From NCBI GenBank assembly GCA_016196545.1, contig JACPXM010000020.1:4168-68167 (forward strand): a DNA stretch of 64,000 nucleotides, read 5' to 3'. Of this stretch, positions 5,250-47,637 are shown one piece after another. A model generated the notes under the pieces. The model was given only the letters and a program-made list of their open reading frames with translations, searched no databases and had not been told where the DNA came from. This DNA is from Candidatus Omnitrophota bacterium. GTDB lineage: Bacteria > Omnitrophota > Omnitrophia > Omnitrophales > Aquincolibacteriaceae. The first letter of the stretch is position 1; each line of letters begins with the position of its first letter. The position numbers and the translations under genes are program-made.

Positions 5250-5807
5250 ATGATTGAGCTTGCAGACTCTCCTAAGGTGGCGGCTTCCATGTTGGATGAA
5301 GACCATCGCAAATGGCATGAAGCCTATTGGTATGCCCTTTATACTCGAAGCCGTCACGAAAAATTTATCCGTGGAGAACTTGAGAAAAAGGGGATTGAAA
5401 CCTTTCTTCCCCTGAAGCGCGTCACACGCCGGTGGTCCGACCGAAAAAAAGTTATCGAAGAACCCCTTTTTAAGGGATATTTATTCGTCCATACGCCTCT
5501 TATAAACCGAATTTCTATTTTAAATACCAAGGGAGCCGTCCGATTTGTAGGGCCCTCGGTTTCTCCCCTTCAGGTTTCCGAAACAGAACTTGCCTCAATC
5601 CGCCATTTTATGGAAAACGAGCTCCCCATGGACCCTTTCCCTTACCTTAAGGAGGGAGAGCGCGTTTACATTCGCTCCGGACCCATGAAGGGCGTAGAAG
5701 GTTTTATTGTACGTAAAGATAAGCACTGCCGTCTGGTCATTTCACTCGACTTATTAATGCAGTCCGTATCGGTTTTGGTGGATCAAGCCATCGTCGAGAA
5801 GTTATGA
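5250..5807 (+). CDS. NusG-paralog transcription antiterminator (RfaH/UpxY-like) heading the polysaccharide locus
   Basis: NGN domain WYALYTRSRHEKFIRGELEKKGIETFLP...RRWSDR...PLFKGYLFVH. C-terminal KOW motif GERVYIRSGPMKGVEGFIV. Confidence 0.75.
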   Translation: MIELADSPKVAASMLDEDHRKWHEAYWYALYTRSRHEKFIRGELEKKGIETFLPLKRVTRRWSDRKKVIEEPLFKGYLFVHTPLINRISILNTKGAVRFVGPSVSPLQVSETELASIRHFMENELPMDPFPYLKEGERVYIRSGPMKGVEGFIVRKDKHCRLVISLDLLMQSVSVLVDQAIVEKL

Positions 5808-24138: not shown

Positions 24139-24944
24139 CGATTATCACGCCCTTTTACAAAAGGGATTTGAGTCCGGAGGAAACAATTTCCCTGAGGCAT
24201 TTGAATCATTTTTTGGGCCCCTATGATAAATATCTAGTGATGCCGGAAGGTAAAAAAGGGGGCCTCAAGGGGTTTCAAAAAACTTTTGTTCCCCAAAAAT
24301 ATTTTAAGAGCCTCGATTCTTACAGTCATTTGCTTTTATCAAAGAAATTTTACCAGCGGTTTGCCCGCTATGATTACATTTTGATTTATCAGCTTGATTC
24401 TTTAGTGTTCTCAGATCAACTCATGGAGTGGTGTGTTCGAGGCTATGATTATATTGGGGCCCCCTGGTTAAAGGAATTCGGATTCCCCTGGACTCAAGGA
24501 AAGGATTTGGTGGGAAATGGAGGGTTTTCCCTGAGAAAGGTTGATAAATTTATTGAGATATTAGAAAATTACAACCATATCGAATTTCTTACCAAACGCT
24601 TGCTTTCCAGCGCCAGACGATTAACATTGAGATTACCGAAGCGCATCTACAAGGCCATTGTTCGGAGCGAGGCGAAGACCACGCTTTACGATCTGTATCA
24701 TAATCCTTATCGATTGTTGAATTGGCTGAATCGAGGATATTCCGGAGAAGACCTTTTTTGGTCGGTCGAGGCCTCTCAGTATGTAAGGCAATATATCAAA
24801 GCCCCCGTGGAGCAAGCCTTGGCCTTCTCCTTTGAAGCAAATCCCGCCTCTTGCTTCAAGAAAAATCATAACACGCTGCCTTTTGGGTGTCATGCGTGGC
24901 CGAAAAATAACAGAAATTTTTGGGAGGCCTATCTTTTGCAATGA
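24117..24944 (+). CDS. conserved hypothetical protein (GT-A-like?), paralog A
   Basis: About 60% identical to the ORF at 26748-27569. Shared blocks SLRHLNHFLGPY, YILIYQLDSLVFSDQL, YDYIGAPWLKEF, GNGGFSLRKV and LPFGCHAW. Confidence 0.5.
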   Translation: MSDQPKVAIITPFYKRDLSPEETISLRHLNHFLGPYDKYLVMPEGKKGGLKGFQKTFVPQKYFKSLDSYSHLLLSKKFYQRFARYDYILIYQLDSLVFSDQLMEWCVRGYDYIGAPWLKEFGFPWTQGKDLVGNGGFSLRKVDKFIEILENYNHIEFLTKRLLSSARRLTLRLPKRIYKAIVRSEAKTTLYDLYHNPYRLLNWLNRGYSGEDLFWSVEASQYVRQYIKAPVEQALAFSFEANPASCFKKNHNTLPFGCHAWPKNNRNFWEAYLLQ

Positions 24945-26764
24945 AGATTTCAGACGATATTTTACGTTTTAAATCTCTGATTCAAAAAACGGAATTAAAA
25001 CTATATTATTTCGTTTTGCCCTCGACCCTTGCGATCCTTTCGTCTCTTTTGGAAGGGGCAACCGTGATGCTTCTTCCCTCTCTTCTCCAAGCGATTTTGA
25101 CCTTAAACATGAATGCCCTCGATCATTCCTTTATTTTTCGATGGCTGGATCCCGTTTTTCCGCTTGATCAAATTTCGAATAGCTCAAAATTCTTGCTTAC
25201 CGTAAGTTTTGTTTTCATCGGCAGTATTGCCCGGCAGATCTTCCAGTATGGAGCTCTGGTGAGTTCCGCTTATCTGGTAAGAACTTTTGCAGACCGCCTG
25301 AGGCAGGCGATCTTCAGCCGATGCCTGAGTTTTAATAAGCATTTTTTTGATGCAACCAGCATCGGGTACATGCATGAAACGGTCAATTACCCAAAGCAGA
25401 TTGCTGCGAAATTGCTGGAAGCGCAGTCGGTCATGATTCAATTGCTTCTCACTGTTGTTTACGTAACCATCCTTTTTTATATTTCGTGGGAATTGACCCT
25501 GATTAGTTTATTTTCATTTTTCTGCACGTATTTTTCCCTGCGGTGGCTGATCTTTAAAATTAAGCATTCTTCCAGAGACTATGTGATATCCCAAAATGAA
25601 TTGGGGAAAAAAATTTATGAAATCTTTTCTTGCATCCCTTTGGTGAAGGCCTATTCCAGGGAAACCGAAGAAAAAAAGAATTTTTCTGAATTGAGCCGGC
25701 AGGTGAGCCTGTTTGAATTTAGCATTGATAAAAAATGGCTCTTGATACCGTCGATTCAGGAAATGATTCAGCTGCTTTCAATTTTAGTGGTTTTATCCGC
25801 AATGGTTTATTTGGTGATTCATGGCGAGGGTGCCGATAGAATCGCTCAATACCTTGTCTTTTTTTACATTATGAGAAGGACCTCTGCGTCCATCGCGATC
25901 ATTAATTCCGCGAGAGGTGCTTTTGCCACCATCAGCGGTCCCGTGGAGGCTATCTCTAAGCTTTTAGAAGGCACAAGCCCGTATGAGATTCAAGAGGGGG
26001 ATAAAGAATTTTCCGGTATTCAAAAGGAAATCCATTTTCGTCATCTTAATTTTTCCTATCCTGGAAATCCAAACGTTCTGCAAGATGTTAATTTAATTTT
26101 GAAGCGAGGAGAAACAACAGCCCTCGTAGGTCCTTCCGGAGCCGGCAAAAGCACCTTGGTTCATTTGCTCCTTCGTTATTATGATTGCCCCCAAGGCTCG
26201 ATTCTTCTTGACGGTGAGGACATCCAGTCTTTCACCAATAAATCGCTTAGAAAGAAAATGGCGCTGGTCAGCCAGGATATTTTCTTGTTTCACCTATCCC
26301 TTCGTGAAAATCTTTTGTATGGCTTAGAAAGTCCAGTCCCGGAAGGGACCATTCAAAAAGTGCTGCATCAATCAAGACTAGCTGAATTTGTGCGGGGCCT
26401 TCCCTCAGGACTTGAGACCGTCGTCGGGGATCGCGGTATAAAACTTTCGGGGGGTGAGAAGCAAAGGCTTTCGATTGCCCGCGCAATTTTAAAGGATGCT
26501 GAAATTCTCATTCTGGATGAGGCCACAAGCTCCCTTGACAGTGTGACGGAGCGGTTGATTCAGGAAGCGATGGACGAACTTGTCAAAGGAAAGACCGTTA
26601 TGGTGATTGCCCATCGCTTTTCGACGATTCAAAAAGCGGATAAAGTGGTTTATCTTGAAAATGGGCGGGTCCTGGAAGAGGGGAAGTGGGAAGGGCTTTT
26701 GAAGCAAAAGGGCAAGGTCTACGAGGCCTGGAAGAATCAAAAAATTAATGTCGAATCCCTCTAA
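24941..26764 (+). CDS. ABC exporter, fused permease plus ATPase (MsbA/PglK-type)
   Basis: Six-TM N-terminal domain, then Walker A GPSGAGKST, signature LSGGEKQRLSIARAIL and Walker B ILILDEATSSLD. Confidence 0.85.
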   Translation: MKISDDILRFKSLIQKTELKLYYFVLPSTLAILSSLLEGATVMLLPSLLQAILTLNMNALDHSFIFRWLDPVFPLDQISNSSKFLLTVSFVFIGSIARQIFQYGALVSSAYLVRTFADRLRQAIFSRCLSFNKHFFDATSIGYMHETVNYPKQIAAKLLEAQSVMIQLLLTVVYVTILFYISWELTLISLFSFFCTYFSLRWLIFKIKHSSRDYVISQNELGKKIYEIFSCIPLVKAYSRETEEKKNFSELSRQVSLFEFSIDKKWLLIPSIQEMIQLLSILVVLSAMVYLVIHGEGADRIAQYLVFFYIMRRTSASIAIINSARGAFATISGPVEAISKLLEGTSPYEIQEGDKEFSGIQKEIHFRHLNFSYPGNPNVLQDVNLILKRGETTALVGPSGAGKSTLVHLLLRYYDCPQGSILLDGEDIQSFTNKSLRKKMALVSQDIFLFHLSLRENLLYGLESPVPEGTIQKVLHQSRLAEFVRGLPSGLETVVGDRGIKLSGGEKQRLSIARAILKDAEILILDEATSSLDSVTERLIQEAMDELVKGKTVMVIAHRFSTIQKADKVVYLENGRVLEEGKWEGLLKQKGKVYEAWKNQKINVESL

Positions 26765-27569
26765 CGTTGCAGTGATTGTCCCTTTTCATAAGGGATCACT
26801 GAGCCGGGATGAATCAATTTCTCTCAGGCACCTGAATCATTTTTTGGGTCCCTACGAAAAATTTCTTGTGATTCCGGAAAATCTTAGCTTGGACCTTCAA
26901 GGGTTTCAGAAAATGGTTTTTCCGGAAAAATTATTTCGGAGCGTTCAATCCTACAATTATCTGCTCTCCAAAAGAGATTTTTATCTTACTTTTAAGCGCT
27001 ACGAATATATCTTAATTTATCAGCTGGACTCCCTTGTCTTTTCTGATCAGCTCCTGCACTGGTGCTCCCAGGGCTATGATTACATTGGGGCGCCGTGGCT
27101 GAAGGAGTTTAAGCTTCCCTGGACCGAGGGAAAAGACCTCGTAGGAAACGGCGGCTTTTCACTCAGGAAGGTAGAAACCTTTCTGGAGGTCTTAGATACT
27201 TATGAAAAATCTCCCAGGCGATTCATCCCAATTCTCGGTCGCCTCTTACAAAGGGTCCCGCATTGGATTCGTAGGGGGAGGAATGCCCAAGCAAGAAGGA
27301 AAATATTAAGCGATTTTAAGAAGCATCCCTTTGGGGTCCTCAATTGGCTCGAGCGGGGAAACTGCAATGGGGAAGACATGTTTTGGTCCATTATGGTTCC
27401 AAAATTTAGTCCGAAATTCAAAAAAGCACCCCCCCGGAAGGCCTTATCTTTCTCTTTTGAATTTAACCCGAGGCTGTCCTTTCAAATGAATCATAAGGCG
27501 CTGCCTTTCGGGTGCCATGCCTGGGCCAAATATGACCGGGCCTTTTGGGAGCCTTACCTTCTTTCATGA
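26748..27569 (+). CDS. conserved hypothetical protein, paralog B of 24117-24944
   Basis: See paralog A. The two flank the ABC exporter. Confidence 0.5.
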   Translation: MSNPSNVAVIVPFHKGSLSRDESISLRHLNHFLGPYEKFLVIPENLSLDLQGFQKMVFPEKLFRSVQSYNYLLSKRDFYLTFKRYEYILIYQLDSLVFSDQLLHWCSQGYDYIGAPWLKEFKLPWTEGKDLVGNGGFSLRKVETFLEVLDTYEKSPRRFIPILGRLLQRVPHWIRRGRNAQARRKILSDFKKHPFGVLNWLERGNCNGEDMFWSIMVPKFSPKFKKAPPRKALSFSFEFNPRLSFQMNHKALPFGCHAWAKYDRAFWEPYLLS

Positions 27570-28490: not shown

Positions 28491-30311
28491 ATGCTAATTT
28501 TCAATTTAAATTTTACCGATATCCCCCTCGAAACCCGCCGAAGGCTTGAGCCTTTATTGGAACTAAACGAAAAAACAGTGATTCTAGATATGGCGGATTG
28601 CGAGTCCTTTTCGCTTAAAGGTCAAAGGGTCGAGAGAAGAATATGGAAGGAAGATTTTCGGGAAAGCATCTCAGAGGCTCGCCGTGGAATTTCGTTTCTG
28701 CTCAATCCTTGGTTGAATGATAAAACACCGTGGGACTATCGAGGTCTTCCGCTACGAAAGATCCTGGAGGGGGAATTGCGTTCTATCGTTTTCTACCGTT
28801 TCCTCATGTTCATATTTTTCACGAAGGCCTTGAAGGCCACGACGTCAAAGCGAGTCGTGATGATCCGAAATAAGCAAGGTTACAATCCGGAGCTGGACCT
28901 GTGGTTTGAAGCGCTCAAGGGATTGGCCCATAACCGCTCTCTGGAATTATTGGAAATCGAAATCCCATCTCAAGGGGTCCCGTTTCGGCGTTGGCTTCGC
29001 CGGGGCTTAAAAGTTTTCCGAAAAGGTCTGACTCAAAAACGCTCAAATCGAATCACGGAATTGGGAAATCAAGAAAAAATCCTTGCGATGGGTTTTGATT
29101 TTCCGACGGCTTTTGAATTAATAACCCCCGTCTTTATCGATTTAAAAAAAGATTATGCTGTCAAATTGTGTCTTTCCGAAGCTTCCGGAGAAAAAGCGGA
29201 TCTTTTGATCAAAACCGCCCAACATTGTGACATCCCTTTTGAAATCCCAAGCCTTGGAGATTGCATTCAGCTTGAGAGGGAACCGCTGCCCGAAATGTAT
29301 CCCCTTTTTGAAACGGGCGCGCGCGACGCCGAATTGTGGAGATTTTTAAAACCCACCTTGGAGGAATATTTCGCTCCACGGGCTTTGCAAAACAAGTTTC
29401 GCCTCATTGAGAGCGTCCGGTTATGGCTTGAGGAAGACAAGGTGAAGGCCGTAATTTTACCCGCCGAAAAAACCGCGGTTCAAAGGGCCGCTTGTTATTG
29501 GGCGGGCATGAAGGCAATCAAAACCGTTATTGTGCCGCATTATTACGACCAATTTTCAATCAAACAGCGCGGCGATTTGTGGCATTCGCCGCCTTTGGCC
29601 ACTCAATGGGCAGTTTTGGGGGAGAAAATCAAAGAAGAATTGATCGATGGCGGAATGGATCGCGGGCGTATTACGGTAACGGGACTTCCTAAGTTCGATA
29701 TCTGCGAGACGGCCCCCGTAAATCAAAGTATCCTTCTTGACCGATTGAAGATTCGGGGAAGGTTCTCTGGAATATTTGTTTGGGCCTTGCAAGGGTTTCG
29801 GGAAGAGGCCTTGCTATTGGAGCATTTGAAGGCGGCCATGAAATTTTTTCCGGATAAGCTTTTAATTGTCAAACCGCATCCGTTTCAGGATCAAAAAGTA
29901 GAAGTCAAAGGGATAAAGAATATCGTGATTCATTCCCTCATGAGCATGAGGGATTTAATTTCCGCCGCCGAAATGCTTCTAACGGGAACTTCTATTAGTG
30001 CCTTTGAAGCGATTCTTATGGGGAGGCCGGTTCTCATTCTGAATTTATTTAACACCCTCTATCCCTATCCCTTTCTTGAGGCTCAAGCCGCATTCGAGGT
30101 GACAAAACCGGCTGAAATCGTCCCGACCATTAAAAAGATCTTGGAGGATACGAATGCTCAAAGTCAATTAAGGGCGGGCCGCGAGCAGATTCGTAAAGCC
30201 TATGGTCCCTGCGCAGGGCGGGATGCGAGGCAAAGATTAAGGGATCTCATTTTATCTGAGGACACGACATGCCTGAAATCCACGAACAATATCAAAAATT
30301 TAACGAGTTAA
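28491..30311 (+). CDS. large HP-motif GT-B protein, capsule-synthesis KpsC-like (Kdo/CMP-sugar transferase family) candidate
   Basis: C-terminal KPHPFQD, and about 40 aa later TGTSISAFEAILMGRPVLIL (HP motif then a serine-rich block). Length 606 aa, close to the roughly 675 aa I recall for KpsC (length not verified). Confidence 0.35.
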   Translation: MLIFNLNFTDIPLETRRRLEPLLELNEKTVILDMADCESFSLKGQRVERRIWKEDFRESISEARRGISFLLNPWLNDKTPWDYRGLPLRKILEGELRSIVFYRFLMFIFFTKALKATTSKRVVMIRNKQGYNPELDLWFEALKGLAHNRSLELLEIEIPSQGVPFRRWLRRGLKVFRKGLTQKRSNRITELGNQEKILAMGFDFPTAFELITPVFIDLKKDYAVKLCLSEASGEKADLLIKTAQHCDIPFEIPSLGDCIQLEREPLPEMYPLFETGARDAELWRFLKPTLEEYFAPRALQNKFRLIESVRLWLEEDKVKAVILPAEKTAVQRAACYWAGMKAIKTVIVPHYYDQFSIKQRGDLWHSPPLATQWAVLGEKIKEELIDGGMDRGRITVTGLPKFDICETAPVNQSILLDRLKIRGRFSGIFVWALQGFREEALLLEHLKAAMKFFPDKLLIVKPHPFQDQKVEVKGIKNIVIHSLMSMRDLISAAEMLLTGTSISAFEAILMGRPVLILNLFNTLYPYPFLEAQAAFEVTKPAEIVPTIKKILEDTNAQSQLRAGREQIRKAYGPCAGRDARQRLRDLILSEDTTCLKSTNNIKNLTS

Positions 30312-31309
30312 AAGCAATTTTCATCGGAGGATTGAATCGCTCGGGAACCTCTTTAGTTCTCAGGCTTTTGGACGGGCATCCTAAATTGCTGGTTTATCCT
30401 ACGGAAAATTGCATGATTCGCGACTATTTTTCGGTGGATTCGAAGCATCCCATTCGAAAGGGAATGGACGAAGGAATGGCATCGCGGGATGCCCAAAAGG
30501 TTTTTGACCATATAAGGATTCAGCCGCGGGCATGGCAATTAACACGTTTAAGGATTAAGGCAAGCGCCGAGCTTCTTTGGCAGCGGCACCCTCATCCCGA
30601 AAGAATCTCTGATGTTTTTACTTCTTTTAACATTCAGGATTTCGAAAAATGTTTCATTGTAACTTTAAATCTGATTAGCTCGGAATGGGACATCGGTCAT
30701 TTGGTGAGGGCTTGGAATTTCAGCTATTTTTGGACCCTTGGCATCCAGGACATGACAAAATTTTCCGGATGGGTCAGCAAATGCCCCAATTCGGAAAATC
30801 ACTATGGTGCTTACCTTTCGTTATTTCCCAAAGGCCGTACGATTCATATCCTTCGGGATCCCCGTGCAATTTTTATCTCCGCGAAAGAAAAAAAGAAGTT
30901 TTCCGGCCAAGGCCAAAGGGAACTTTTGAGCCTGCAGCCTTTCAAAGAGCTTGTTTTGTCCATTCAAACCTATAAAAACCGGTGGGCGAAAGTGGCGGAG
31001 GCCTCCCAGCTTTATCCAAGTGATTTTAAGATTTTAAAATATGAGGATTTGATTCAAAACCCTCAGCGCGAGATGGAAAAAATAAGCCATTTTTTGGGGA
31101 TCGAATACGACGCTATTTTGTTGACTCCGACTTTTATGGGGGATCCGTGGTATGCGAATTCCAGTTTTGAGCTTCAAAAAGATAAAACGGGAATTATTTT
31201 TCAAGATTCTTTAAAGCGATGGCAGAAGGAGATCTCCATTTGGGAAAGACTGCTGCTCAATTGCCACTTTTCAAAAATTCTTAAGGAGTGGAATTACCCC
31301 CGCTACTAA
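30269..31309 (+). CDS. sulfotransferase, paralog 1
   Basis: 5'-PSB loop GGLNRSGTSL and 3'-PB-like ILRDPRAIFIS. Confidence 0.7.
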   Translation: MPEIHEQYQKFNELKAIFIGGLNRSGTSLVLRLLDGHPKLLVYPTENCMIRDYFSVDSKHPIRKGMDEGMASRDAQKVFDHIRIQPRAWQLTRLRIKASAELLWQRHPHPERISDVFTSFNIQDFEKCFIVTLNLISSEWDIGHLVRAWNFSYFWTLGIQDMTKFSGWVSKCPNSENHYGAYLSLFPKGRTIHILRDPRAIFISAKEKKKFSGQGQRELLSLQPFKELVLSIQTYKNRWAKVAEASQLYPSDFKILKYEDLIQNPQREMEKISHFLGIEYDAILLTPTFMGDPWYANSSFELQKDKTGIIFQDSLKRWQKEISIWERLLLNCHFSKILKEWNYPRY

Positions 31310-31324
31310 AAGTGAGGAGCTTTG

Positions 31325-32338
31325 ATGTCTGAAATCCAAAAACAATTTCAAGCCTTCAGTAAGTTAACGGCGATTTTTATCGGGGGACTGGCACGATCGG
31401 GAACCTCCCTCATGCTACGCTTGTTGGATGGGCATCCCAAATTGCTCGTCCACCCGATTGAAAATTGCATCCTACGAGATTTTTTCGAAGCGCCCCCCAC
31501 GCATCCGGTCCGCAAGGGGATTGAAGAAGGGATGGGATCGCGGGATGCACAGAAGATTTTTGATCATTTGAAGACCAATCCCCGGGCATGGAGGCTTACC
31601 CGCGTAAGGACAGAAGGAGAGGGAGAAATCGTGGAGGAACACTCTTCCTTTAATGTGGAAGGGTTTGAAAAATGCTTTTTAGAAACCTTAAGCGGCGTCA
31701 ATTCCGCATGGGACATTCATCATTTACTTCAGGTTTGGCTTTTTAGTTATTTTTGGACGCTCAAAAAGCGGGACATGTCCCTGTATTCCGGTTGGGTCAT
31801 CAAATGTCCGAGTGCGGCCAAGTATTATAAAACCTACGCGGACTATTTTCCCGAGAGAAGGATTATCCATTTGATGCGCGATCCCCGCGCCGTCTATCTG
31901 TCGGCAAGGGAAAAAAAGACTTCCGCGCAAAATCAGGAAGTGGTCACTGTCCTTTTAAGAAAAAGGCCCCTTTTGGGAGTCCCGCTTTTGATGCGATTTT
32001 ACAAGGATGAAATAGATCGTGCCCAAGCCTTTGCCAAAGCTCAGCGTGTCAAATTTACCCTCATAAAGTATGAAGATTTGGTGAACTTCCCTCAAGATCA
32101 AATGGAAAAAATTAGCCATTTTTTAAACATCCCCTATGATCCTATTTTGGCAATGCCTACTTTCGGGGGACGGCCGTGGGTTGCCAATTCCAGTTTTGAG
32201 GTTCCGAGAGATCAAAGCGGAAAAATTTTTGAGGATTCTTCCAAACGCTGGGAAAAAGGGATCTCCGTTTGGGAAAGGCTTTTATTCGGGGTTTATTTTT
32301 CAAAAACGATTAAGGAGTGGAATTACCCCCGCTACTAA
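31325..32338 (+). CDS. sulfotransferase, paralog 2
   Basis: GGLARSGTSL and LMRDPRAVYLS. It shares a 30-nt identical 3' end, encoding KEWNYPRY, with paralog 1. Confidence 0.7.
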   Translation: MSEIQKQFQAFSKLTAIFIGGLARSGTSLMLRLLDGHPKLLVHPIENCILRDFFEAPPTHPVRKGIEEGMGSRDAQKIFDHLKTNPRAWRLTRVRTEGEGEIVEEHSSFNVEGFEKCFLETLSGVNSAWDIHHLLQVWLFSYFWTLKKRDMSLYSGWVIKCPSAAKYYKTYADYFPERRIIHLMRDPRAVYLSAREKKTSAQNQEVVTVLLRKRPLLGVPLLMRFYKDEIDRAQAFAKAQRVKFTLIKYEDLVNFPQDQMEKISHFLNIPYDPILAMPTFGGRPWVANSSFEVPRDQSGKIFEDSSKRWEKGISVWERLLFGVYFSKTIKEWNYPRY

Positions 32339-32347
32339 AGGTTGCTC

Positions 32348-33322
32348 ATGCCGGATATCTCCTTCATTATCCCTGCCTTGAATGAAAAGGAAACCCTGCG
32401 TTATACCCTTGCGAATCTCTTTAAGACGGTTACGCAACAAAGTTTTGAAGTCATTGTCGTGGATGACGGCTCTGAGGAAGACCTTTCAGGAGAGCTGATT
32501 GATCCCGGTAAGGTGATTTATATCAAAAATCACCAAAGATTGGGAGTCTCAAAATCCCGAAATCGCGGTGCCCGCCAGGCCCGGGGCCAAGTCCTCGTAT
32601 TTTTAGATGCCCATGTATGTTTTGTGGGGGATTGGCTCAGTAAAATTTTAAAAAAAAGAAAGCAGTTCAAGGATGCCGTCATGGGCATCATGACATATCC
32701 CTTAACAGATATTCAGGTGTTTTGGGAAATTGCCCTCTCGGGCGTCCCTCCTAAGAAAAAAATAAAGTCGCAGCCTTGTTACGGGTTTACCATGACTTCA
32801 TTGCCCATGCCGGAGCTTCATGCCATTTCTTCGAAACGATTCCATTCACCCTTTGAGGTCCCCATCGTAACGGCCCGCGCTATGATCGTTGAAAAAAATT
32901 TATTCTTTGAACTCGGGGGATTTCTTAATGAACTTACCGGTTATGGGGCCCTCGAAGATACGGAATTTTGTATGCGGGCTTGGATTTTTGGGAAAAAAGT
33001 GCTCGCCTTTGCCGATACGGAGTGCTATCACTGCCTTTACGGGCCGAGGTCTACCAAAAGCACACGCGTCGAATATGAAAAAATACCTTTTTATACCGAA
33101 AAATATGAAGGCGGTGTGGAAAACGCGTTTCGAATCTTTTACCTGCACTCTTCCGAAAATCAATTTAAGCAACTGATCGACTTCCATAAAAATCTCTCGG
33201 GGTTTAGCCCGAACCTTTCGGCGATTCTGACGGACGAATTAAAGGCCCAAAAAGAATGGATTTCCAAAAAAAGAATTCATGATGAGGACTGGCTTTTTCA
33301 GAGAATGAAAAAGGTAGGTTGA
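32348..33322 (+). CDS. glycosyltransferase family 2
   Basis: ISFIIPALNEKETL...FEVIVVDDGS. Confidence 0.8.
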   Translation: MPDISFIIPALNEKETLRYTLANLFKTVTQQSFEVIVVDDGSEEDLSGELIDPGKVIYIKNHQRLGVSKSRNRGARQARGQVLVFLDAHVCFVGDWLSKILKKRKQFKDAVMGIMTYPLTDIQVFWEIALSGVPPKKKIKSQPCYGFTMTSLPMPELHAISSKRFHSPFEVPIVTARAMIVEKNLFFELGGFLNELTGYGALEDTEFCMRAWIFGKKVLAFADTECYHCLYGPRSTKSTRVEYEKIPFYTEKYEGGVENAFRIFYLHSSENQFKQLIDFHKNLSGFSPNLSAILTDELKAQKEWISKKRIHDEDWLFQRMKKVG

Positions 33323-33324
33323 GA

Positions 33325-33774
33325 ATGTTTCCTCCGATCGTGATTGTGACCGATTCCCTAAAAAGGATGGAGGAATTTAAAAATAACGAGAGGTATTTAA
33401 TTGTCGCCACCCGGCCCCACCTAATTTTGGAATTCAAAGAAATGGGGTATTTGAATACCCGCGATTTGGGTCAATATCAAACGGGGAGGTTTCACGACTA
33501 TAACGATTTATACCGTCACTACGAGGCAGAGGTCCTCAAAGGGTCCGGATTGGCAGAAAAGGAGGAGGCCCTCTCGTGGGAGAATTTCCGTCAAACCTTG
33601 ATGTCTGCCCTTGCACCCATTTACTTCCTGCGAGATACCCTGAGCTCGCTTGCTCAAAAGGAAGGGGCCCACGAATTTATATTGAAAGTTCAAGACCCGG
33701 AATCAAAACTTAATTTTCAAATGGCCGTAAATGAACTCCATGAAAAAAATCTTATTCGCATTTTATCATCGTGA
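33325..33774 (+). CDS. hypothetical protein
   Basis: ORF only. Overlaps the next gene by about 40 nt. Confidence 0.3.
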   Translation: MFPPIVIVTDSLKRMEEFKNNERYLIVATRPHLILEFKEMGYLNTRDLGQYQTGRFHDYNDLYRHYEAEVLKGSGLAEKEEALSWENFRQTLMSALAPIYFLRDTLSSLAQKEGAHEFILKVQDPESKLNFQMAVNELHEKNLIRILSS

Positions 33775-34840
33775 TGATTTTCCCACGATAGAACCGCTTC
33801 CGCTTCCTTTAGCGAGGCGGGGGGCTGAGGCCTTTCTCTGTAATAGTTATCTGCCCCGATTTAGGTTTAAAACCTCAAATTGGAAAACGATTTTTCCCAA
33901 GCCTTCAAGGATAAAAGATTCAAACAAAGAATATTTATCCCAAGTTTTAAGCCCTCTGGCGAGAGGCATCTTAAATAAAAGGTACGGCAGTAATACGGTT
34001 ATTGAACATTTGCATAGTTATCAAACCGATATTCCCCCTTTTCTTGAAAGGACTCTTCAAACCCTGAAACCGGATTTGGTGGTACTCTCTTTGAGCGAAG
34101 TTGAAAGTATGCTGGCCCGGGACGCCTGCAAACGATTTTCCGTGAAATATTGCTATTTGTTGCCGCAGTATTTTGAATTCAAGACCCTCGGCTATTTTAA
34201 AATCGAGCCCGTCCCTTATCTCGTGGCCGGAGAGGAGGGAAAAGAGCGCCTGATTCGTAAAGGGGCCCGCCCGGAACAGATCTTCGTTACCGGAAACGCT
34301 TCCTACGACAAAGTCTTTCGTATCCTCAAAAAAAAGATCCCCAAAGATACTTCCCATAAAACTATTCTATTTGCCCAGCAAAATAGAAGTGAGGACGCCA
34401 TTCTAATGGATCTTTTAAAGCGCTATTTATCGAGACGAAAAACGGTGCGATGGGTTAACCGTCCTCATCCCACAGAGTTAAGCGGCAAGAGGCGGTCTTT
34501 TGCACAGTCTCAAAGCCTTCATTCCGACCTTTTAAAATCAGATGTCTTGGTGACGGCATCTTCCCTAACGCTGCTTGACGCAATCGTCTTGAATGTTCCG
34601 GCCCTTTCATTTAAATGCGACTATTTTCCTGAAGAAATTTCCTTTGCGGACCATGGCGATGTACTTCCGGCGCGTAACTACGGAGAATTGGAGAAATTTT
34701 TAGATCTTATTCTTTTTGATTCAGAATTTCGAAGGGTTTGGCGCAAATCCCGTGAAGATGCCTCTAAAAAATATCTGTCTCAGGGTGACGACCCTGCTGC
34801 GGAAAAAATTGCCGAGGTCTTGCTTGACCTTGCTTCCTAA
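33731..34840 (+). CDS. HP-motif GT-B protein, capsule-synthesis KpsS-like candidate
   Basis: VNRPHPTE, and 32 aa later VTASSLTLLDAIVLNVPAL. Length 369 aa, close to the roughly 390 aa I recall for KpsS (length not verified). Confidence 0.35.
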   Translation: MNSMKKILFAFYHRDDFPTIEPLPLPLARRGAEAFLCNSYLPRFRFKTSNWKTIFPKPSRIKDSNKEYLSQVLSPLARGILNKRYGSNTVIEHLHSYQTDIPPFLERTLQTLKPDLVVLSLSEVESMLARDACKRFSVKYCYLLPQYFEFKTLGYFKIEPVPYLVAGEEGKERLIRKGARPEQIFVTGNASYDKVFRILKKKIPKDTSHKTILFAQQNRSEDAILMDLLKRYLSRRKTVRWVNRPHPTELSGKRRSFAQSQSLHSDLLKSDVLVTASSLTLLDAIVLNVPALSFKCDYFPEEISFADHGDVLPARNYGELEKFLDLILFDSEFRRVWRKSREDASKKYLSQGDDPAAEKIAEVLLDLAS

Positions 34841-34841
34841 C

Positions 34842-35849
34842 TTGAATCAAAAAATTACAGTGCGTTCCTACGAAGCGGGGGATGAGGCCGGCGTTCGGGA
34901 TTTGTTTCATCGTGTCTTTGGAAAAGAAAAAAGGAAGGAAATTTGGGAATGGGAATTTTTCAGCGCCGAAAACGGCCCGTCTCTTTTGACAGTTGCGGCT
35001 GATGACGACGGTCATATTGTTGGATTTTGCGGAGGGGTGTCTCTACGGTTTCAGTATCAGGAAAGGGTATTAAAGGTTTATCAAATCGTGGACCTTATGG
35101 TCCATCCCGATTGTCGGTGCCGAGGACTTTTGCGTGACTTGATGCAATACCATTTTAAAAGTGCCCCGGGAGCTGATTACGGATTTATGTACGGATTTCC
35201 TTCCCCGGAGGCCGCGCGTTTGTTGAAATTTCATCAATTGAGCGAAGCGGCCTCGGAGATCACCGAGTGGAAAATGAAGCTTGGCTGGAGAAAGGGGCTC
35301 AAACTTTTATGGAAGCAGAACGCCTCAAAGGGAAATACTTTCGTGTTCACGCCTCTTAAGAAGTTTGATTCAGAAATCGATAGGTTCTGGGAATCTGTAA
35401 AAGGGGATTATCCCTGTGGGATTATTCGAGATAGTCAGTATCTTAATTGGCGCTATGCAGACGCTCCAGGACATCCTTATGATCTTTTTGTTGCCAGAGA
35501 CTCTCAAACCCGCTCGATTCAGGGATTAGCCGTGACCGAGGCGGTAGCGAATTCCGGCCGCTGGGAGATTATTTTATGGGAACTTTTTGTTCGCCCGAAT
35601 GACGACGCGTGCTTGCGATTTATGCTTGATCGTTTGGCGCTTCGCTGCTGGCTTCGTGGAAAGAAAGCCCTTCGCTTTTTTCAGGCGCCTCAAAAAAAAC
35701 CCCCGATTTTTATGTCCCTTGGATTTAAGAAAAAAGCGTTTGAGGCATGCCGATTTCTGCCCTTGTTTTATGGTCCCTCGGTCGATCGTTCCTTTATCAA
35801 GGACCGTCATTATTATTCACCAGGTGATATGGATCTTTTCTTCTTTTAA
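34842..35849 (+). CDS. GNAT-fold acyltransferase
   Basis: acyl-CoA-binding-like VGFCGG...RCRGLLRDLMQY. TTG start at 34842, straight after the upstream stop. Confidence 0.45.
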   Translation: MNQKITVRSYEAGDEAGVRDLFHRVFGKEKRKEIWEWEFFSAENGPSLLTVAADDDGHIVGFCGGVSLRFQYQERVLKVYQIVDLMVHPDCRCRGLLRDLMQYHFKSAPGADYGFMYGFPSPEAARLLKFHQLSEAASEITEWKMKLGWRKGLKLLWKQNASKGNTFVFTPLKKFDSEIDRFWESVKGDYPCGIIRDSQYLNWRYADAPGHPYDLFVARDSQTRSIQGLAVTEAVANSGRWEIILWELFVRPNDDACLRFMLDRLALRCWLRGKKALRFFQAPQKKPPIFMSLGFKKKAFEACRFLPLFYGPSVDRSFIKDRHYYSPGDMDLFFF

Positions 35850-35850
35850 A

Positions 35851-36822
35851 ATGGTCAATCCCAAATCGATTTGTGAAAAGCTCGACCGAAGGCTTTCAGC
35901 CGTCTTAGGATCACGCATTGTCATTTTAAATTATCATCATGTCCTCGCCTCCCGTCAGGATTTATTCAATATCTGTGTCGCGCCCAAAAATTTTGAGGCC
36001 CATTTGGAATTCCTCAAGCGCCGGTATCGGGTCTTGGGTCTTTCGGAACTATTGGGTCTTTTGAAAATAGGCAAAATTCCCCACAGGGCCGTAGTCCTGA
36101 CTTTCGACGACGGATATTCAGATAACTATTTGAACGCGGTGCCTCTTTTAGAAAAATATCGAATGCCCGCAACTTTTTTTGTGACCACACAACATCTAGA
36201 TACCCTTGAGGAATTTTGGTGGGATGGGATTCAAAGACTGGCTTTGTCCCTCAAAAAATTTCCGGAAAAGGTTCATCTTGAAATTTCCGGTGAGGATTGT
36301 GAATTGGCATTGGGGTCATCTCCCGAACCGACATTGAGATTATTATCCCAAAAAATGTATTCGCTGGAGGAGGAAAGCCGGAGGCGTCTTCTCCAGGAAC
36401 TATTTCGAAAATGTGGCGTTCGGGACGAGCCCCGAGCTGAGTACCGGTGTTTTTCGTCAGAAGAGCTCTTTTTGATTTCTAAAAATCCCCTTTTTGAAAT
36501 GGGTGCCCATACGGTTTCACACCGGTCCCTTAAATCGCTCCCCCTTGAAACCCAGAGGATGGAAATTTTGGCGAGCAAGAAATGCTTAGAAGAAATCATT
36601 CAAAAGACAATCCGGCATTTTGCGTATCCCTTTGGAACGCCGGAGCATTACACGCCTGAAACACAACGGTTAGTTCAAGCATGTGGATTTAAAAGCGCCT
36701 GCACGGTGGGATCTAGCGCGGTGAATCCTGACAGCCCTTTATTTGGTCTCTGCCGACTGGCGGTTGGAGATGGCCCAGCGACTTCATTTTCACAAAAGCT
36801 TGCGGAGTGTTTTCATTCTTAA
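35851..36822 (+). CDS. polysaccharide deacetylase (CE4/NodB domain)
   Basis: LTFDDGYSDNY and the later GAHTVSH. The ATG at 35851 follows the upstream stop codon by one nucleotide. Confidence 0.75.
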   Translation: MVNPKSICEKLDRRLSAVLGSRIVILNYHHVLASRQDLFNICVAPKNFEAHLEFLKRRYRVLGLSELLGLLKIGKIPHRAVVLTFDDGYSDNYLNAVPLLEKYRMPATFFVTTQHLDTLEEFWWDGIQRLALSLKKFPEKVHLEISGEDCELALGSSPEPTLRLLSQKMYSLEEESRRRLLQELFRKCGVRDEPRAEYRCFSSEELFLISKNPLFEMGAHTVSHRSLKSLPLETQRMEILASKKCLEEIIQKTIRHFAYPFGTPEHYTPETQRLVQACGFKSACTVGSSAVNPDSPLFGLCRLAVGDGPATSFSQKLAECFHS

Positions 36823-40603: not shown

Positions 40604-41815
40604 TTGAAACTTCTTCTGATTAATCAAGTTTTTTGGCCGGATGTAGCGGCGACCGCGCAGCATCTTACGGACCTTGCCTGTGAACTCATAAATCAGGGCC
40701 ATGAAGTGACAGTCCTTTGCGCCCGCCGTGGATATACGGAGCCGCATTCTATATTTGCCAAAAAAGAAATTTACCAAGGGATTCACATTGTTCGAGTGTG
40801 GCCCTTCTCTTTGGGCAGAAAATATAAAATTCTTAGAGTTTTAGATTCCCTTATTTTAAATTTTGCGTTTGCGCTGCGACTTGCGAGGCTGGGACATTTT
40901 GAGCGTATCCTTGTTCTTACGTCGCCTCCGCTCGTGGGTGGGGTGGCCGGTTTTTTTGCCAAGCTTTGGAGAAAACCTCTTATTTTGTGGATGATGGATG
41001 TGAATCCCGATGAGGCCATTGAGGCGGGTTGGATTCGACGAAACTCCTTGGAAGCTCACATGCTGGAGTCCGCGCTTCGATGGGTATTAAATCAAAGCCA
41101 AAAAATCATCGTGCTGGACCGCTTTATGCGGGACCGCATCCTTCTTAAAGGCGCCGATCCGAACAAAGTAAAAGTCATCGCGCCCTGGTCTCATGATGAA
41201 GCGATTCAACTTATTCCTCATCGTGATAATCCGTTTCGAAAAAAAAATAATCTTGATGGAAAATTCGTCGTTATGTATTCAGGTAATCTCAGCATTTGCC
41301 ATCCCCTGAACACGCTTTTGGAGGCTGCGTTTTTGCTCAAAGAGGAGCCTACGATTTCCTTTGTTTTCATCGGAGGCGGCCAGCGCACCCAAGATATCCT
41401 TCAGGCCCGCAAAGAGCGCTCTTTATCGAATGTTTTTTATTTTCCTTATCAACCCCGGACAGAGATCAAATATTCTCTTTCGGCAGCCGATCTTCATACC
41501 GTGGTGATGGGGGAACCTTATGTGGGGATTGTTCACCCCTGCAAAATTTACGGAATTTTAAGGCTTGGCCGGCCTTTCATTTACATCGGCCCTCAACAAA
41601 GCGCCCCCGGAGAATTGATGGAGGCCCTAAAGACGGGCGCTCGCGTCGATCACGGAGAAGCGGAAAGGCTTGCGGGGCTCATCCTTAAAATGAAAAATTT
41701 GAGCGAAGCTGAAAAAATGGAAATCCAAAAAATAAATCAGGCACTCGCGCAGCAGTTTTCCGGTCATGAAATTTGCGCCGGGCTCGCGCGCGAAATAACA
41801 GGGAAATTAAATTGA
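40604..41815 (+). CDS. glycosyltransferase, GT4-like (WcaI-like)
   Basis: LLLINQVFWPDVAATAQHLTDLACEL is a GT4 N-terminus. TTG start. Confidence 0.7.
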   Translation: MKLLLINQVFWPDVAATAQHLTDLACELINQGHEVTVLCARRGYTEPHSIFAKKEIYQGIHIVRVWPFSLGRKYKILRVLDSLILNFAFALRLARLGHFERILVLTSPPLVGGVAGFFAKLWRKPLILWMMDVNPDEAIEAGWIRRNSLEAHMLESALRWVLNQSQKIIVLDRFMRDRILLKGADPNKVKVIAPWSHDEAIQLIPHRDNPFRKKNNLDGKFVVMYSGNLSICHPLNTLLEAAFLLKEEPTISFVFIGGGQRTQDILQARKERSLSNVFYFPYQPRTEIKYSLSAADLHTVVMGEPYVGIVHPCKIYGILRLGRPFIYIGPQQSAPGELMEALKTGARVDHGEAERLAGLILKMKNLSEAEKMEIQKINQALAQQFSGHEICAGLAREITGKLN

Positions 41816-41817
41816 GG

Positions 41818-43143
41818 ATGATCTCTCAGCGAAGTTTCTTTCTTCTGAGCTGCGATTTATTGTCGCTTGCGATTGCCTATGTCTTTGGTTTCGGCATGCG
41901 CACGGGATTTAACGAATACGCGCTTTCACGGCTGAGCTTTCTTTATTTTTCTTTTATCGTCTTTCCCATTCTCTTTTACACGTTTGACCTTTACTATCCC
42001 TACAAGCATTTTGGCGGCATGCAAACGTTCATTGACGTCGTGCTGGCCGTTGTGACCGGGATTATCCTTTCTGCCGCCGCGGCCTATGCCGACCGTTCCC
42101 TTATTCTGCCCCGGCTTATCTTTTTCTATACCATGATTTCTCTCATTCCCACGATTTACGCGGCCCGACTTTTTTATGATTTTCTTTTTGGCTCAAGACT
42201 CCTCGATAAAAAAGTCATTGTCATTGGAACCGGTCCGCTGGCGCTGGAAATCGTGCGCACCATTCGTGCGACCCCTCATTCGGGAATGGATATTGTCGGC
42301 CTTGTCAGCACAAAAAAAGTGCCCTCGGAAAAAAAGCACGGAATTCCGATCACGGGTTCCCTCAAGGACCTGATCACTTTGATTGACTGGTACAACATTC
42401 AGCTTGTGGTGATGGCGCTGGAGGCCGGAGAAGACCATTCCGAGACTCATGTGATGGCAGACCTGCTGATGCACCGGGTCCAAGTCGTGAGCTCTATCCA
42501 TTTATTTGAGCGGCTGACGCAGGAAATTCCCTATAAGCTATTGGGGCCTCAATACCTTCTCGGATTAATGTCCCAAGTCAAAATTAGGCCTTATCTGAAA
42601 ATGAAGCGGGTTCTTGATCTCATCACGGCCTCTTTATTATTGATCTTTCTTTTGCCTGTTTTTATGTTCGCGTTGTTTTTTCTTTCGATCACGGCGCGCG
42701 GAAAAATATTTTTTTATCAGGACCGCATTGGAAAAGACAGCATCCCCTTCCGTCTCTATAAATTGAGGACGATGGCAGAGTCCCAAAAGGGGCATCTTTA
42801 CATCACGCGTTTCGGAGGATTCCTCAGGAAATTCCGGATCGACGAAATTCCTCAGCTATGGAATGTGATCAAAGGGGATATGAGCCTGATCGGCCCGCGG
42901 CCGGAAATCCCTTATTTTGTGACCCGCTGCCGCAAGCGCATTCCTTTTTATGACGCTGTCTTTGCCGTCAAACCCGGCCTTACGGGATGGGCTCAGGTGA
43001 AATTCCGTTACACGGTATCCGCCAAGGATTATGAGCAGAAATTTCGATACAACTTGTACTATTTAAAAAATATTTCCTTTGCGCTGGATCTTTTGATTGT
43101 TTTGAAGACGATTCGCGTGGTGTCGCTGGGGAGAGGAAAATAA
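41818..43143 (+). CDS. polyprenyl-phosphate sugar-phosphate transferase (WbaP/EpsL-type initiating transferase)
   Basis: KRVLDLITASLLLIFLLPVF...YKLRTM...DEIPQLWNVIKGDMSLIGPRPE is the bacterial sugar transferase domain. Confidence 0.85.
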   Translation: MISQRSFFLLSCDLLSLAIAYVFGFGMRTGFNEYALSRLSFLYFSFIVFPILFYTFDLYYPYKHFGGMQTFIDVVLAVVTGIILSAAAAYADRSLILPRLIFFYTMISLIPTIYAARLFYDFLFGSRLLDKKVIVIGTGPLALEIVRTIRATPHSGMDIVGLVSTKKVPSEKKHGIPITGSLKDLITLIDWYNIQLVVMALEAGEDHSETHVMADLLMHRVQVVSSIHLFERLTQEIPYKLLGPQYLLGLMSQVKIRPYLKMKRVLDLITASLLLIFLLPVFMFALFFLSITARGKIFFYQDRIGKDSIPFRLYKLRTMAESQKGHLYITRFGGFLRKFRIDEIPQLWNVIKGDMSLIGPRPEIPYFVTRCRKRIPFYDAVFAVKPGLTGWAQVKFRYTVSAKDYEQKFRYNLYYLKNISFALDLLIVLKTIRVVSLGRGK

Positions 43144-45460: not shown

Positions 45461-45570
45461 CCGCTACCTCCCCCCACCCGGTGTTTAAAAGCTTTTTCAC
45501 ACCGAGTGGGGGGAGGGTTGCCGGGAGAATGACAATTGCACGAACTGGTAGACACCCCCTGGTACTTTTT
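45461..45570. repeat. composite GC-rich repeat: a 50-nt near-perfect palindrome (45467-45516) fused to a 45-nt module shared with 48520-48576
   Basis: cctccccccacccggtgt...acaccgagtggggggagg, with 1 mismatch in 18 bp. Then gttgccgggagaatgacaattgcacgaactggtagacacccc. Confidence 0.55.
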
Positions 45571-46716: not shown

Positions 46717-47446
46717 GAAAAAAGGCGAAAAGCAAAAATTTCCCCTACGAGGTTTCCGCATTGCAGGGAACCTGGTGCTCGTGGGGTTATTTTCCCTTTC
46801 GTCTTTTGCTGCAGAAGATTCCTCCTCGAATTGGTATTCAGAAAAAGACAATGTGACGGCGGATGAAAAACTTTATTTAGAAAAGGCGAGCCAAGAATTT
46901 GTAATCGTGGAGGAGCATTTGGCGGAACTTCGAAGACAGAAGACGTTTAGGCAATTGGAGAATCAAAATACCCTCCAAGAAATCGAAAAAGAGAAAAGTT
47001 TCGCGGAGGGCCGGCTTAAAATTCTAAAATCGGCATCAGAGGCGGAACGCGCCCATGCGCAACAGGAATTTGAAAAATCACTTTCGCACTTTAATCAAGG
47101 GATGGAAAAAACCTCTAAAAATATGCTCTCGGAAGATCATTATTTTCTCTGGCAGCTTCGTTCCCAAATGCGCGACCGGGAATATCAAGAAAAGCAAATT
47201 CATAAAATTAAGCCCGACCCGAGTTGGGGAAATAAGGAAAAGCTCGATCAAAAATTGAAGGCCGCCATCGGTAAAAGAAAGACCTTGGATGAGAAAATTA
47301 AGGCCTATGAGAAATCCAAAGGAAAGGCACGCGACGAGGCCCGTCAAGCCCTTGAAGAGGAAATGAAATCTCTAAATAAGGAATATAAGGAAATCCTTTC
47401 AAGGTCCAAACGCAGCCAGGGGCCGGTGATTAAAACGATCCAATAA
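46697..47446 (+). CDS. secreted or membrane-anchored coiled-coil protein
   Basis: Hydrophobic N-terminus GNLVLVGLFSLSSFAAE, then a low-complexity E/K/Q-rich heptad-like sequence. Confidence 0.4.
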   Translation: MCNLSCKKKGEKQKFPLRGFRIAGNLVLVGLFSLSSFAAEDSSSNWYSEKDNVTADEKLYLEKASQEFVIVEEHLAELRRQKTFRQLENQNTLQEIEKEKSFAEGRLKILKSASEAERAHAQQEFEKSLSHFNQGMEKTSKNMLSEDHYFLWQLRSQMRDREYQEKQIHKIKPDPSWGNKEKLDQKLKAAIGKRKTLDEKIKAYEKSKGKARDEARQALEEEMKSLNKEYKEILSRSKRSQGPVIKTIQ

Positions 47447-47506: not shown

Positions 47507-47637
47507 ATTCTCCTAAAGCAACCCAGTCAAATAGGAATGAATTGTAACTTTTGATTGTTTTATTATGTCATAACTTGTTTATTTTTAAATGGTTATAGCT
47601 ATTGCAATGAAATCTTAATGTGGTAATTTTCCCTATA

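Follow-up and report, generated by a model that had tools for sequence, protein, structure and literature searches.

Old tandem duplicates in an Omnitrophota glycan operon: two predicted sulfotransferases for a surface polysaccharide

When two neighbouring genes for sulfotransferase-like proteins lie in the middle of a glycan locus and end in the same 30 nucleotides, does the shared end record a recent duplication, and what would two such enzymes be doing there? The question is raised by a 64,000-nucleotide stretch of contig JACPXM010000020.1 from Candidatus Omnitrophota bacterium (NCBI GenBank assembly GCA_016196545.1, forward-strand positions 4,168 to 68,167), which is called the window below and in whose own numbering all coordinates are given. 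A first-pass annotation of this sequence had read in both proteins the motifs that bind 3'-phosphoadenosine 5'-phosphosulfate (PAPS) and had taken the identical ends as pointing to recent duplication or gene conversion. Our analysis suggests a different history: the two genes, named A and B here, are quite probably old, lineage-specific tandem duplicates encoding PAPS sulfotransferases that would act on a surface glycan.

30269..31309, + strand: gene A, sulfotransferase of 346 amino acids (GenBank MBI3316636.1)
31325..32338, + strand: gene B, sulfotransferase of 337 amino acids, tandem paralog of gene A (GenBank MBI3316637.1)

GenBank names both products 'sulfotransferase'. A mechanical list of open reading frames (ORFs) puts the start of gene B at a TTG codon at 31322, but the ATG at 31325, which gives the 337-residue product of the GenBank record, is most likely the start used because a GAGGAG Shine-Dalgarno sequence lies 6 nt upstream of it. 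An independent Logan assembly (run SRR12113417) agrees with window positions 29417-32184 with 0 mismatches, so that gene A, the first copy of the shared 30-mer and the junction between A and B are no assembly artefacts. No hydrophobic or transmembrane segment was predicted in A or B, and both proteins are therefore predicted to be soluble and cytoplasmic. As an observation on the C-termini, relatives P0023, P0024, P0026, P0027, P0003, P0028 and P0031 continue for 20-50 residues beyond a conserved E[W/F]GY motif, and most close relatives have such a tail, which is basic and partly hydrophobic (e.g. KKVQFQKLKKFIWFILQYRRGM); A and B end three residues after the motif without this 20-50-residue extension, and what is missing may be a lost membrane-association helix.

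Searches with profile hidden Markov models (HMMs) matched both proteins to Pfam PF13469 (Sulfotransfer_3), with 89.5 bits for A (4.8e-25) and 79.7 bits for B (4.7e-22), far over the gathering cut-off of 27, and to PF00685 (Sulfotransfer_1), with 44.5 and 33.5 bits, respectively (cut-off 22); these were the sole Pfam families matched. An AlphaFold2 model, made for protein A from an alignment of 17 homologues, reached a mean predicted local distance difference test (pLDDT) value of 86.1 and a predicted template-modelling score of 0.87. When this model was compared by Foldseek with the Protein Data Bank (PDB), 20 of the 20 matches at E <= 1e-3 were PAPS-binding sulfotransferase-fold enzymes, with the tyrosylprotein sulfotransferases TPST1 and TPST2 in the lead, followed by the sulfotransferase (ST) domains of CurM and of an olefin synthase (OLS) and by mycobacterial Stf9 and Stf1. 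A search of the PDB with the family profile returned TPST1 at 2.5e-29, CurM ST at 7.7e-25 and OLS ST at 2.1e-23. The positions that would form the cofactor site and the active site are as follows.

30326..30355, + strand: 5'-phosphosulfate-binding loop of A, GGLNRSGTSL, residues 20-29, with Arg24
31382..31411, + strand: 5'-phosphosulfate-binding loop of B, GGLARSGTSL, residues 20-29, with Arg24
30404..30406, + strand: Glu46 of A, predicted catalytic base, invariant in the subclade
31460..31462, + strand: Glu46 of B, predicted catalytic base, in the same alignment column as Glu46 of A
30779..30781, + strand: Lys171 of A (KCP), predicted equivalent of the TPST catalytic Lys, nearly invariant and aligned to the Lys of TPST1 'NKDP'
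31802..31804, + strand: Lys160 of B (KCP), counterpart of Lys171 of A
30854-30865, + strand: RDPR of A, residues 196-199
31877-31888, + strand: RDPR of B, residues 185-188
30854..30880, + strand: 3'-phosphate-binding element of A, RDPRAIFIS, residues 196-204, with Arg196 and Ser204
31877..31903, + strand: 3'-phosphate-binding element of B, RDPRAVYLS, residues 185-193, with Arg185 and Ser193

The loops GGLNRSGTSL and GGLARSGTSL align to GGVPRSGTTL, the 5'-phosphosulfate-binding (5'-PSB) loop of TPST1/2, with R24, G26 and T27 invariant in an eleven-member subclade, and RDPRxxxxS aligns to RDGRASVHS, the 3'-phosphate-binding (3'-PB) element of TPST1, with R196, P198 and S204 invariant. The profile alignment pairs Glu46 of A with the second Glu of 'GEETR' in TPST, the residue that is the catalytic base in the TPST2 structure; the roles predicted for the other aligned residues likewise follow those of their TPST counterparts. 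Residues R24, E46, K171, R196 and S204 of A (K160, R185 and S193 in B) thus match the PSB Arg, the Glu, the Lys and the 3'-PB Arg and Ser of TPST. As far as sequence and predicted structure go, A and B are sulfotransferase-fold enzymes with complete PAPS-binding and catalytic motifs, and they appear to belong to the TPST/CurM-like branch of Sulfotransfer_3, the one with a Glu base. Neither is a member of the NoeE equivalog (NCBIfam NF052394; 33.1 bits for A and 18.1 for B against a cut-off of 500), which is the only NCBIfam model with any similarity to A (2.3e-08).

The motifs named in the first-pass annotation, the two 5'-loops and RDPR, can be read directly from both proteins, and the sulfotransferase identity drawn from them is borne out by the HMM matches. 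The annotation had itself pointed to another reading, in which GxxRSGT is the P-loop of a kinase or ATPase in a non-sulfotransferase fold. That reading has a superficial likeness of the motif to the Walker A loop behind it and nothing more, while Pfam matches Sulfotransfer_3 and Sulfotransfer_1 only, the top structural matches are all sulfotransferases, and the 3'-PB element is conserved together with a TPST-type Glu and Lys; we consider it refuted and give it practically no credence.

With regard to the age of the pair, alignment of the two genes speaks against the recent duplication proposed at first. The proteins are 53-55% identical (1e-140) and the DNA is 63% identical, falling to 45% at third codon positions; by the Nei-Gojobori method the proportion of synonymous differences (pS) is 0.73, corresponding to a saturated synonymous divergence (dS) of about 2.9, with a nonsynonymous divergence (dN) of 0.35 and a dN/dS of 0.12. 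Because synonymous sites are saturated, third positions are at 45% and dN/dS is as low as 0.12, the duplication is, judged by sequence divergence, old and not recent, with both copies under purifying selection. Neither a library of 5.8 billion proteins nor an exhaustive HMMER scan of 1.84 billion representatives holds a closer relative of A than B, or of B than A: the next relative stands at 40% and the remainder at about 33-35%. A and B, encoded on a contig of 202,760 bp, each form a single-member cluster in the protein library. Both are equally distant from all nine outgroups. Divergence between them is concentrated at residues 94-118, which hold an 11-residue indel and have low pLDDT, and at residues 207-267, where the proportion of nonsynonymous differences (pN) reaches 0.39-0.60 in the comparison windows spanning them; the PAPS-binding part at the N-terminus is conserved, as are the last 90 residues. 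Such a pattern of divergence would fit altered acceptor specificity.

The place of the duplication is suggested by a locus in a Logan assembly (SRR13608701 contig 921, 94.8 kb; L076) that is syntenic with the window and whose single sulfotransferase (P0025) is 34.4% identical to A and 34.6% to B. Since this syntenic cassette holds one sulfotransferase, equidistant from A and B, the cassette ancestrally would have had one, and A and B would therefore have been duplicated within the lineage of this genome.

If the duplication is old, the identical ends call for an explanation of their own.

31281..31310, + strand: first copy of the 30-mer, within a 46-nt stretch (31268-31313) that is 91% identical to its counterpart
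32310..32339, + strand: second copy of the 30-mer, within a 46-nt stretch (32297-32342) that is 91% identical to its counterpart

In the 64-kb window the string TTAAGGAGTGGAATTACCCCCGCTACTAAA is present in exactly two copies, a match that none of 100 shuffled sequences (0/100) produced, and no further copy was found in the window at <=3 mismatches, including at the ends of the other operon genes. Its 26 coding nt, made up of 2 nt and the eight codons of KEWNYPRY, are followed by the TAA stop and 1 intergenic base. The observation that the two genes end in 30 identical nucleotides is thus right as to the presence of the 30-mer at both 3' ends, but only 29 nt of it are genic. The next longest identical run between A and B is 15 nt, at an overall identity of 63%. 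As the last eight codons hold only ~3.7 synonymous sites, the eight identical residues explain most of the 30-mer. At the protein level, the whole family keeps an aromatic [W/F/Y]-x-Y close to the C-terminal end, and the C-terminal tail of the A model is confident (pLDDT about 87 in the last block), so that constraint on this part of the protein is to be expected.

Beyond this constraint, short-tract gene conversion could have homogenised the 3' ends after divergence, over roughly the last 150 nt, with the 30-mer as the best-preserved part. An identical run of >=26 nt anywhere in the gene has P = 0.034 when codon pairs are permuted within amino-acid classes, a conservative procedure, and P = 0.001 when synonymous codons are drawn independently. 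The 46-nt stretch is 91% identical against 63% overall, and pS is about 0.48-0.50 in windows covering 283-327 against 0.73 overall. Identical residues share the same codon in 24 of 30 cases from position 297 on and in 71 of 142 elsewhere (0.80 versus 0.50; one-sided Fisher p = 0.002, with a cut-point picked post hoc, after seeing the data). In a control of 22 sulfotransferase paralog pairs from 11 unrelated loci, no pair (0/22) has an identical tail: 3' identity never exceeded 4 nt, and the longest identical runs were 11-14 nt in pairs at about 50% amino-acid identity; one truly recent pair (L007), 89% identical, carries an identical run of 667 nt. On the other hand, the longest same-codon run, tested as a sign of conversion, was not significant (P = 0.083), the 3' region is also more conserved in protein (pN 0.17-0.19), so that constraint may explain part of the signal, and 63% identity would offer little perfect homology for RecA-dependent initiation. 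We regard conversion, as proposed in the first-pass annotation, as possible, though on balance somewhat doubtful: the last ~50 codons show fewer synonymous differences, but the 30-mer alone is weak evidence (P about 0.03). A role of the 30-mer as nucleotide sequence, whether as RNA hairpin, AAGGAG pause site, or termination or translational-coupling context, seems improbable to us. Both copies do lose identity one base past the stop, the string does contain AAGGAG, and a 5-bp hairpin (AGUGG/CCGCU) is predicted in both copies; however, in folding, neither of the 75-nt 3' regions does better than shuffled sequences (z = -0.61 and +1.04), Rfam matches nothing anywhere in the 64-kb window, and the 30-mer is at no other operon gene end even with 3 mismatches. 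Moreover, the distances to the next start differ (15 nt after A, where the start has a GAGGAG of its own; about 10 nt after B), AAGGAG lies about 37-42 nt upstream of the next starts, too far for a ribosome-binding site, and promoter-like and terminator-like counts are within the range of shuffled sequences. The ops element of RfaH was considered by eye and rejected: the reverse complement is only partly alike, on the wrong strand and over 6 nt only.

Taken as part of the best explanation of the pair, which as a whole we hold to be quite probable, the tail is the conserved aromatic motif together with about four undiverged synonymous sites and no separate element. It lies at the very end of the ~50-codon 3' zone of lower synonymous divergence, and it would come from constraint on the protein, joined either by chance or, possibly, by an old conversion of part of the 3' end. 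The value of the shared tail lies mainly in a general caution and not in any demonstrated biological consequence: when paralogs have 30 nucleotides in common, fewer than four synonymous sites may be informative.

The surroundings of the pair bear on what A and B might act upon. All genes from 5250 to 43143 are on the + strand with short gaps or overlaps, forming an operon of ~38 kb.

5250..5807, + strand: UpxY-family NusG-like antiterminator at the operon head (NF033644 134.5 bits, cut-off 100)
24920..26764, + strand: fused ATP-binding cassette (ABC) exporter, HepA/MsbA/PglK-like, candidate flippase/exporter of a lipid-linked glycan (PF00664 and PF00005)
28491..30311, + strand: 606-residue GT-B-like 'surface carbohydrate biosynthesis' protein, overlapping gene A by 43 nt
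32342..33322, + strand: glycosyltransferase of family GT2 directly downstream of gene B (PF00535 8.8e-27)
33319..36822, + strand: rest of the cassette, namely a 151-residue protein, a 369-residue GT-B-like protein, a GNAT acetyltransferase and a polysaccharide deacetylase (by Pfam)
41773..43143, + strand: initiating polyprenyl-phosphate glycosylphosphotransferase at the operon end (PF02397 7.9e-55; TIGR03025 313 bits, cut-off 295.6)

The exporter also matches HepA_fam_ABC at 4.7e-143, under the cut-off of that model, and the 28491..30311 product matches TIGR04396 (1.2e-13) and, weakly, Glyphos_transf, both under cut-off. The operon holds at least 12 glycosyltransferases (GT4, GT2 and GT87) and several methyltransferases, as well as two polysaccharide deacetylases, a GNAT protein, a GDSL esterase, a carbamoyltransferase, two DUF5672 paralogs and a Wzy-like protein recognised by a weak match only; no Wzx was found in Pfam scans of the operon genes. 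Given this gene content, with glycosyltransferases, exporter, antiterminator and initiating enzyme, the earlier placement of the pair inside a glycan locus was correct. The DUF5672 proteins (24117-24944 and 26748-27569; 3e-52 and 4.8e-52) are a second paralog pair in the same operon; their genes flank that of the fused ABC exporter and are 71% identical over the first 132 nt, and since this pair is also present, duplication in the operon is not unique to the sulfotransferases.

At a wider scale, the sulfotransferase family comprises 5,454 cluster representatives at E <= 1e-3 and only 11 at E <= 1e-30. Distant members occur in representative genomes of many phyla, and clustered sulfotransferase paralogs were found in 11 of 50 loci. 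According to the literature, demonstrated bacterial sulfated polysaccharides are rare and sulfotransferase genes common (PMC8205485), and our own searches agree on the commonness of the genes in bacteria. The first-pass statement that such an arrangement is uncommon in bacteria therefore needs dividing: it holds in that few sulfated polysaccharides have been demonstrated (PMC8205485, PMC7356697), but not for the gene family or for clustered paralogs, both of which are common.

Among the relatives, the L076 locus shares the cassette itself. It is headed by a NusG-like gene whose product is 59% identical to the UpxY of the window, and its genes run in the order 624-residue homologue of the 28491-30311 product, sulfotransferase, small protein, GT-B-like protein, GNAT, deacetylase and GT2. 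The cassette genes are 29-39% identical to their window counterparts; the 624-residue protein, encoded directly upstream of the sulfotransferase, is 31% identical to the 28491-30311 product, and the GT2 that closes the cassette in L076 is 38% identical to the window GT2 at 32342..33322. The operon heads are syntenic as well (L076 1-17023 against window 3575-36822), with Pribosyltran, a small minus-strand ORF, HTH_17 and NusG/UpxY. In L076 the sulfotransferase cassette follows 2-6 kb on from the head, after Wzm/Wzt, whereas head and cassette of the window are separated by about 23 kb of additional genes for glycosyltransferases and methyltransferases and by an ABC exporter of another, fused kind. 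The ends of the locus are conserved and the region between them appears to vary.

Other members of the subclade are tied more directly to glycan assembly. P0026 is a 776-residue fusion of a sulfotransferase with GT9, a heptosyltransferase family (L072 10001-12331; European Nucleotide Archive (ENA) ERZ27253378 contig k141_680047), which is also present at L073, so that the fusion type is known from two groundwater-type metagenome assemblies. It directly follows Wzm and a Wzt that bears the carbohydrate-binding domain Wzt_C, and a polysaccharide deacetylase comes next. Where O-antigen export depends on an ABC transporter, Wzt_C is the domain that recognises the cap ending the chain, and by analogy one idea is that sulfate might be the chain cap at the L072 and L073 loci. 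P0027 adjoins a separate GT9 gene. Sulfotransferase and Polysacc_deac_1 occur together in all three subclade loci with enough context (3/3: the window, L072, where the two are adjacent, and L076); of 71 loci with distant members of the family, only 3 have both.

From these observations the following course of events can be proposed. A single-copy cassette sulfotransferase would have been duplicated in tandem long ago in this lineage, with both copies retained. A and B would each move sulfate from PAPS to a different hydroxyl, possibly of a different sugar, on an undecaprenyl-diphosphate-linked oligosaccharide at the cytoplasmic face of the membrane; this side is suggested by the cytoplasmic location of the nucleotide PAPS and the predicted solubility of the enzymes. 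The products of nearby genes may add methyl, carbamoyl and acetyl groups at the same face before export, after which the fused ABC exporter would carry the glycan to the outside. The surface polysaccharide made in this way would be heavily decorated, with sulfate next to those three substituents, and the retention of two paralogs would suggest two sulfate positions by analogy with synechan.

The acceptor is the point at which other readings have to be weighed. A and B might instead sulfate tyrosine of a protein or peptide in the manner of TPST, or a lipid or a small molecule; bacterial tyrosine sulfation has a precedent in RaxST. The nearest structures by both sequence and fold are indeed TPSTs and the acyl-acyl carrier protein (ACP) sulfotransferases CurM and OLS, and NCBIfam gives the pair no specific equivalog (NoeE at 33 bits against 500). 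However, identity to TPST is only about 16-17%, A and B are embedded in, and overlap with, the glycan genes of one operon, their subclade relatives are fused or adjacent to GT9 and stand in Wzm/Wzt loci, the order of the cassette is kept with L076, and no precursor-peptide gene was noticed beside A and B; a non-glycan acceptor is therefore unlikely in our view. A more specific glycan reading, which we offer as a long shot, likens the cassette, with its GT-B-like protein, sulfotransferase, GNAT and CE4-type polysaccharide deacetylase, to the heparan-sulfate N-deacetylase/N-sulfotransferase of eukaryotes, of which it would be a bacterial form divided over separate proteins. The deacetylase would free an amine on a hexosamine of the lipid-linked glycan, one paralog would N-sulfate it and the other would O-sulfate. 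The joint occurrence of sulfotransferase and deacetylase genes in the subclade loci and the N-sulfated exopolymers reported from Pontiella (PMC7356697) lie behind this reading. If this were true, the surface polymer would resemble a glycosaminoglycan and be doubly sulfated, a type so far not known from the phylum.

The reading of A and B as old duplicates sulfating a surface glycan, with a tail kept mainly at the protein level, remains the one we favour, and several observations weigh against it. The closest solved structures act on protein tyrosine (TPST) or on an acyl-ACP hydroxyl (CurM) and not on sugars; this ranking reflects which members have been crystallised, because few bacterial carbohydrate sulfotransferases of the family have been solved. 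Neither ATP sulfurylase nor adenosine 5'-phosphosulfate (APS) kinase is encoded in the 64-kb window. The 30-mer is a mild statistical outlier, unmatched by the other paralog pairs, and with the P values of 0.001-0.034 and its absence from the controls, pure chance is not an entirely comfortable account of it. Finally, no orthologous pair by which the history of the tail could be followed was found in any collection searched: a scan of genome-contig proteins for orthologous loci gave only relatives at 29% identity or less, a scan of metagenome-contig proteins gave none, and a degenerate DNA pattern for KEWNYPRY plus stop had no match.

Several further features of the window were seen alongside. 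In the mechanical listing the GNAT ORF (34716-35849) and the deacetylase ORF (35587-36822) overlap by 263 nt; by tblastn the deacetylase ORF matches L076 from residue 31, upstream of the gene start called in L076, and L072 from residue 93, just past the GNAT stop codon. The sole Inositol_P-family protein, at 55543-56334, is no clear CysQ, as it scores best as SuhB-like and falls under all cut-offs. A near-perfect hairpin (4124-4170; 23-nt arms, 96% complementary, 1-nt loop) comes right after the Pribosyltran-like gene ending at 4123 and is probably a terminator that parts this gene from the glycan operon region. Beyond the operon, a 51-nt inverted repeat (45510-45560 and 48526-48576) is 84% complementary with a 25-nt core containing one mismatch; both arms are intergenic and bracket a radical S-adenosylmethionine (SAM) gene (45595-46716), an ORF with no Pfam match (46580-47446) and a GAF-domain gene (47620-48519). 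The repeat occurs only twice in the window, was found in 0 of 100 shuffles and has no Rfam match there; its arms could be a pair of regulatory sites, or they could delimit a small unit that is mobile or invertible.

A search of the literature on Omnitrophota for sulfotransferases, exopolysaccharides, sulfated glycans or APS kinase returned nothing relevant. The pair predicts that an uncultured Omnitrophota bacterium sulfates a surface polysaccharide at two positions. Proven bacterial sulfated polysaccharides come mainly from cyanobacteria, with scattered cases such as Pontiella, and because they are so few, a conserved Omnitrophota cassette would extend the known range; A and B are also candidate enzymes for engineered sulfated glycans. 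Current understanding is otherwise unchanged, since GenBank already annotates both genes, the family is widespread and the claim stays at the level of annotation. The new point is a modest one: a predicted sulfated glycan in Omnitrophota, the enzyme assignment itself being known from GenBank.

Among solved structures the best matches in sequence and fold are TPST1 and TPST2 (PDB 3AP1, 5WRI and 9WWE). They have in common with A and B the xxRSGT(T/S)L loop, in which an Arg replaces the Lys of the cytosolic sulfotransferases (SULTs), a Glu some 22 residues further on, a Lys ahead of the 3'-PB element and RDxRxxxxS. TPST and A are 16-17% identical, with a template-modelling score (TM-score) of about 0.5-0.6, and TPSTs are Golgi-lumenal type II membrane proteins acting on the tyrosines of acidic peptides, whereas A and B are predicted to be soluble and lie in a glycan operon; the pair is accordingly not filed as TPST, a decision based on a comparison of global similarity only. 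The ST domains of CurM and OLS (PDB 4GBM and 4GOX) are bacterial and of the same branch, and CurM has the highest TM-scores (0.56/0.67), but these are polyketide synthase domains that activate an acyl-ACP beta-hydroxyl, and A and B have no polyketide synthase context. Rhizobial NoeE, a PAPS-dependent O-sulfotransferase of Nod-factor oligosaccharide, acts on a glycan; A and B lack a nod-gene context.

Whole clusters offer a further comparison. In Pontiella sulfatireligans F21, a PF13469 sulfotransferase is encoded among GT2, GT4 and methyltransferase genes in a putative cluster for a glycosaminoglycan-like exopolysaccharide (PMC7356697). For Pontiella, a member of the Planctomycetes-Verrucomicrobia-Chlamydiae (PVC) group, sulfated exopolymers have been detected chemically and are largely N-sulfated (PMC7356697). 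The likeness to the present operon is one of gene context, and unlike the tandem A and B the Pontiella cluster has a single sulfotransferase gene. The synechan xss cluster of Synechocystis sp. PCC 6803, with the sulfotransferases XssA and XssE, combines eight glycosyltransferases and two sulfotransferases, which fit the eight sugars and two sulfates of the polymer (PMC8205485); the reading of A and B as two enzymes for two sulfate positions, on a lipid-linked repeat unit made in the cytoplasm, follows the same logic. It differs from the operon described here in using Wzx/Wzy and a polysaccharide copolymerase (PCP), where we find a fused ABC exporter and a weak Wzy-like match, and in belonging to another phylum; in gene content and published description, on which the comparison is based, it resembles the Omnitrophota operon in holding two sulfotransferase genes among many glycosyltransferases in one cluster.

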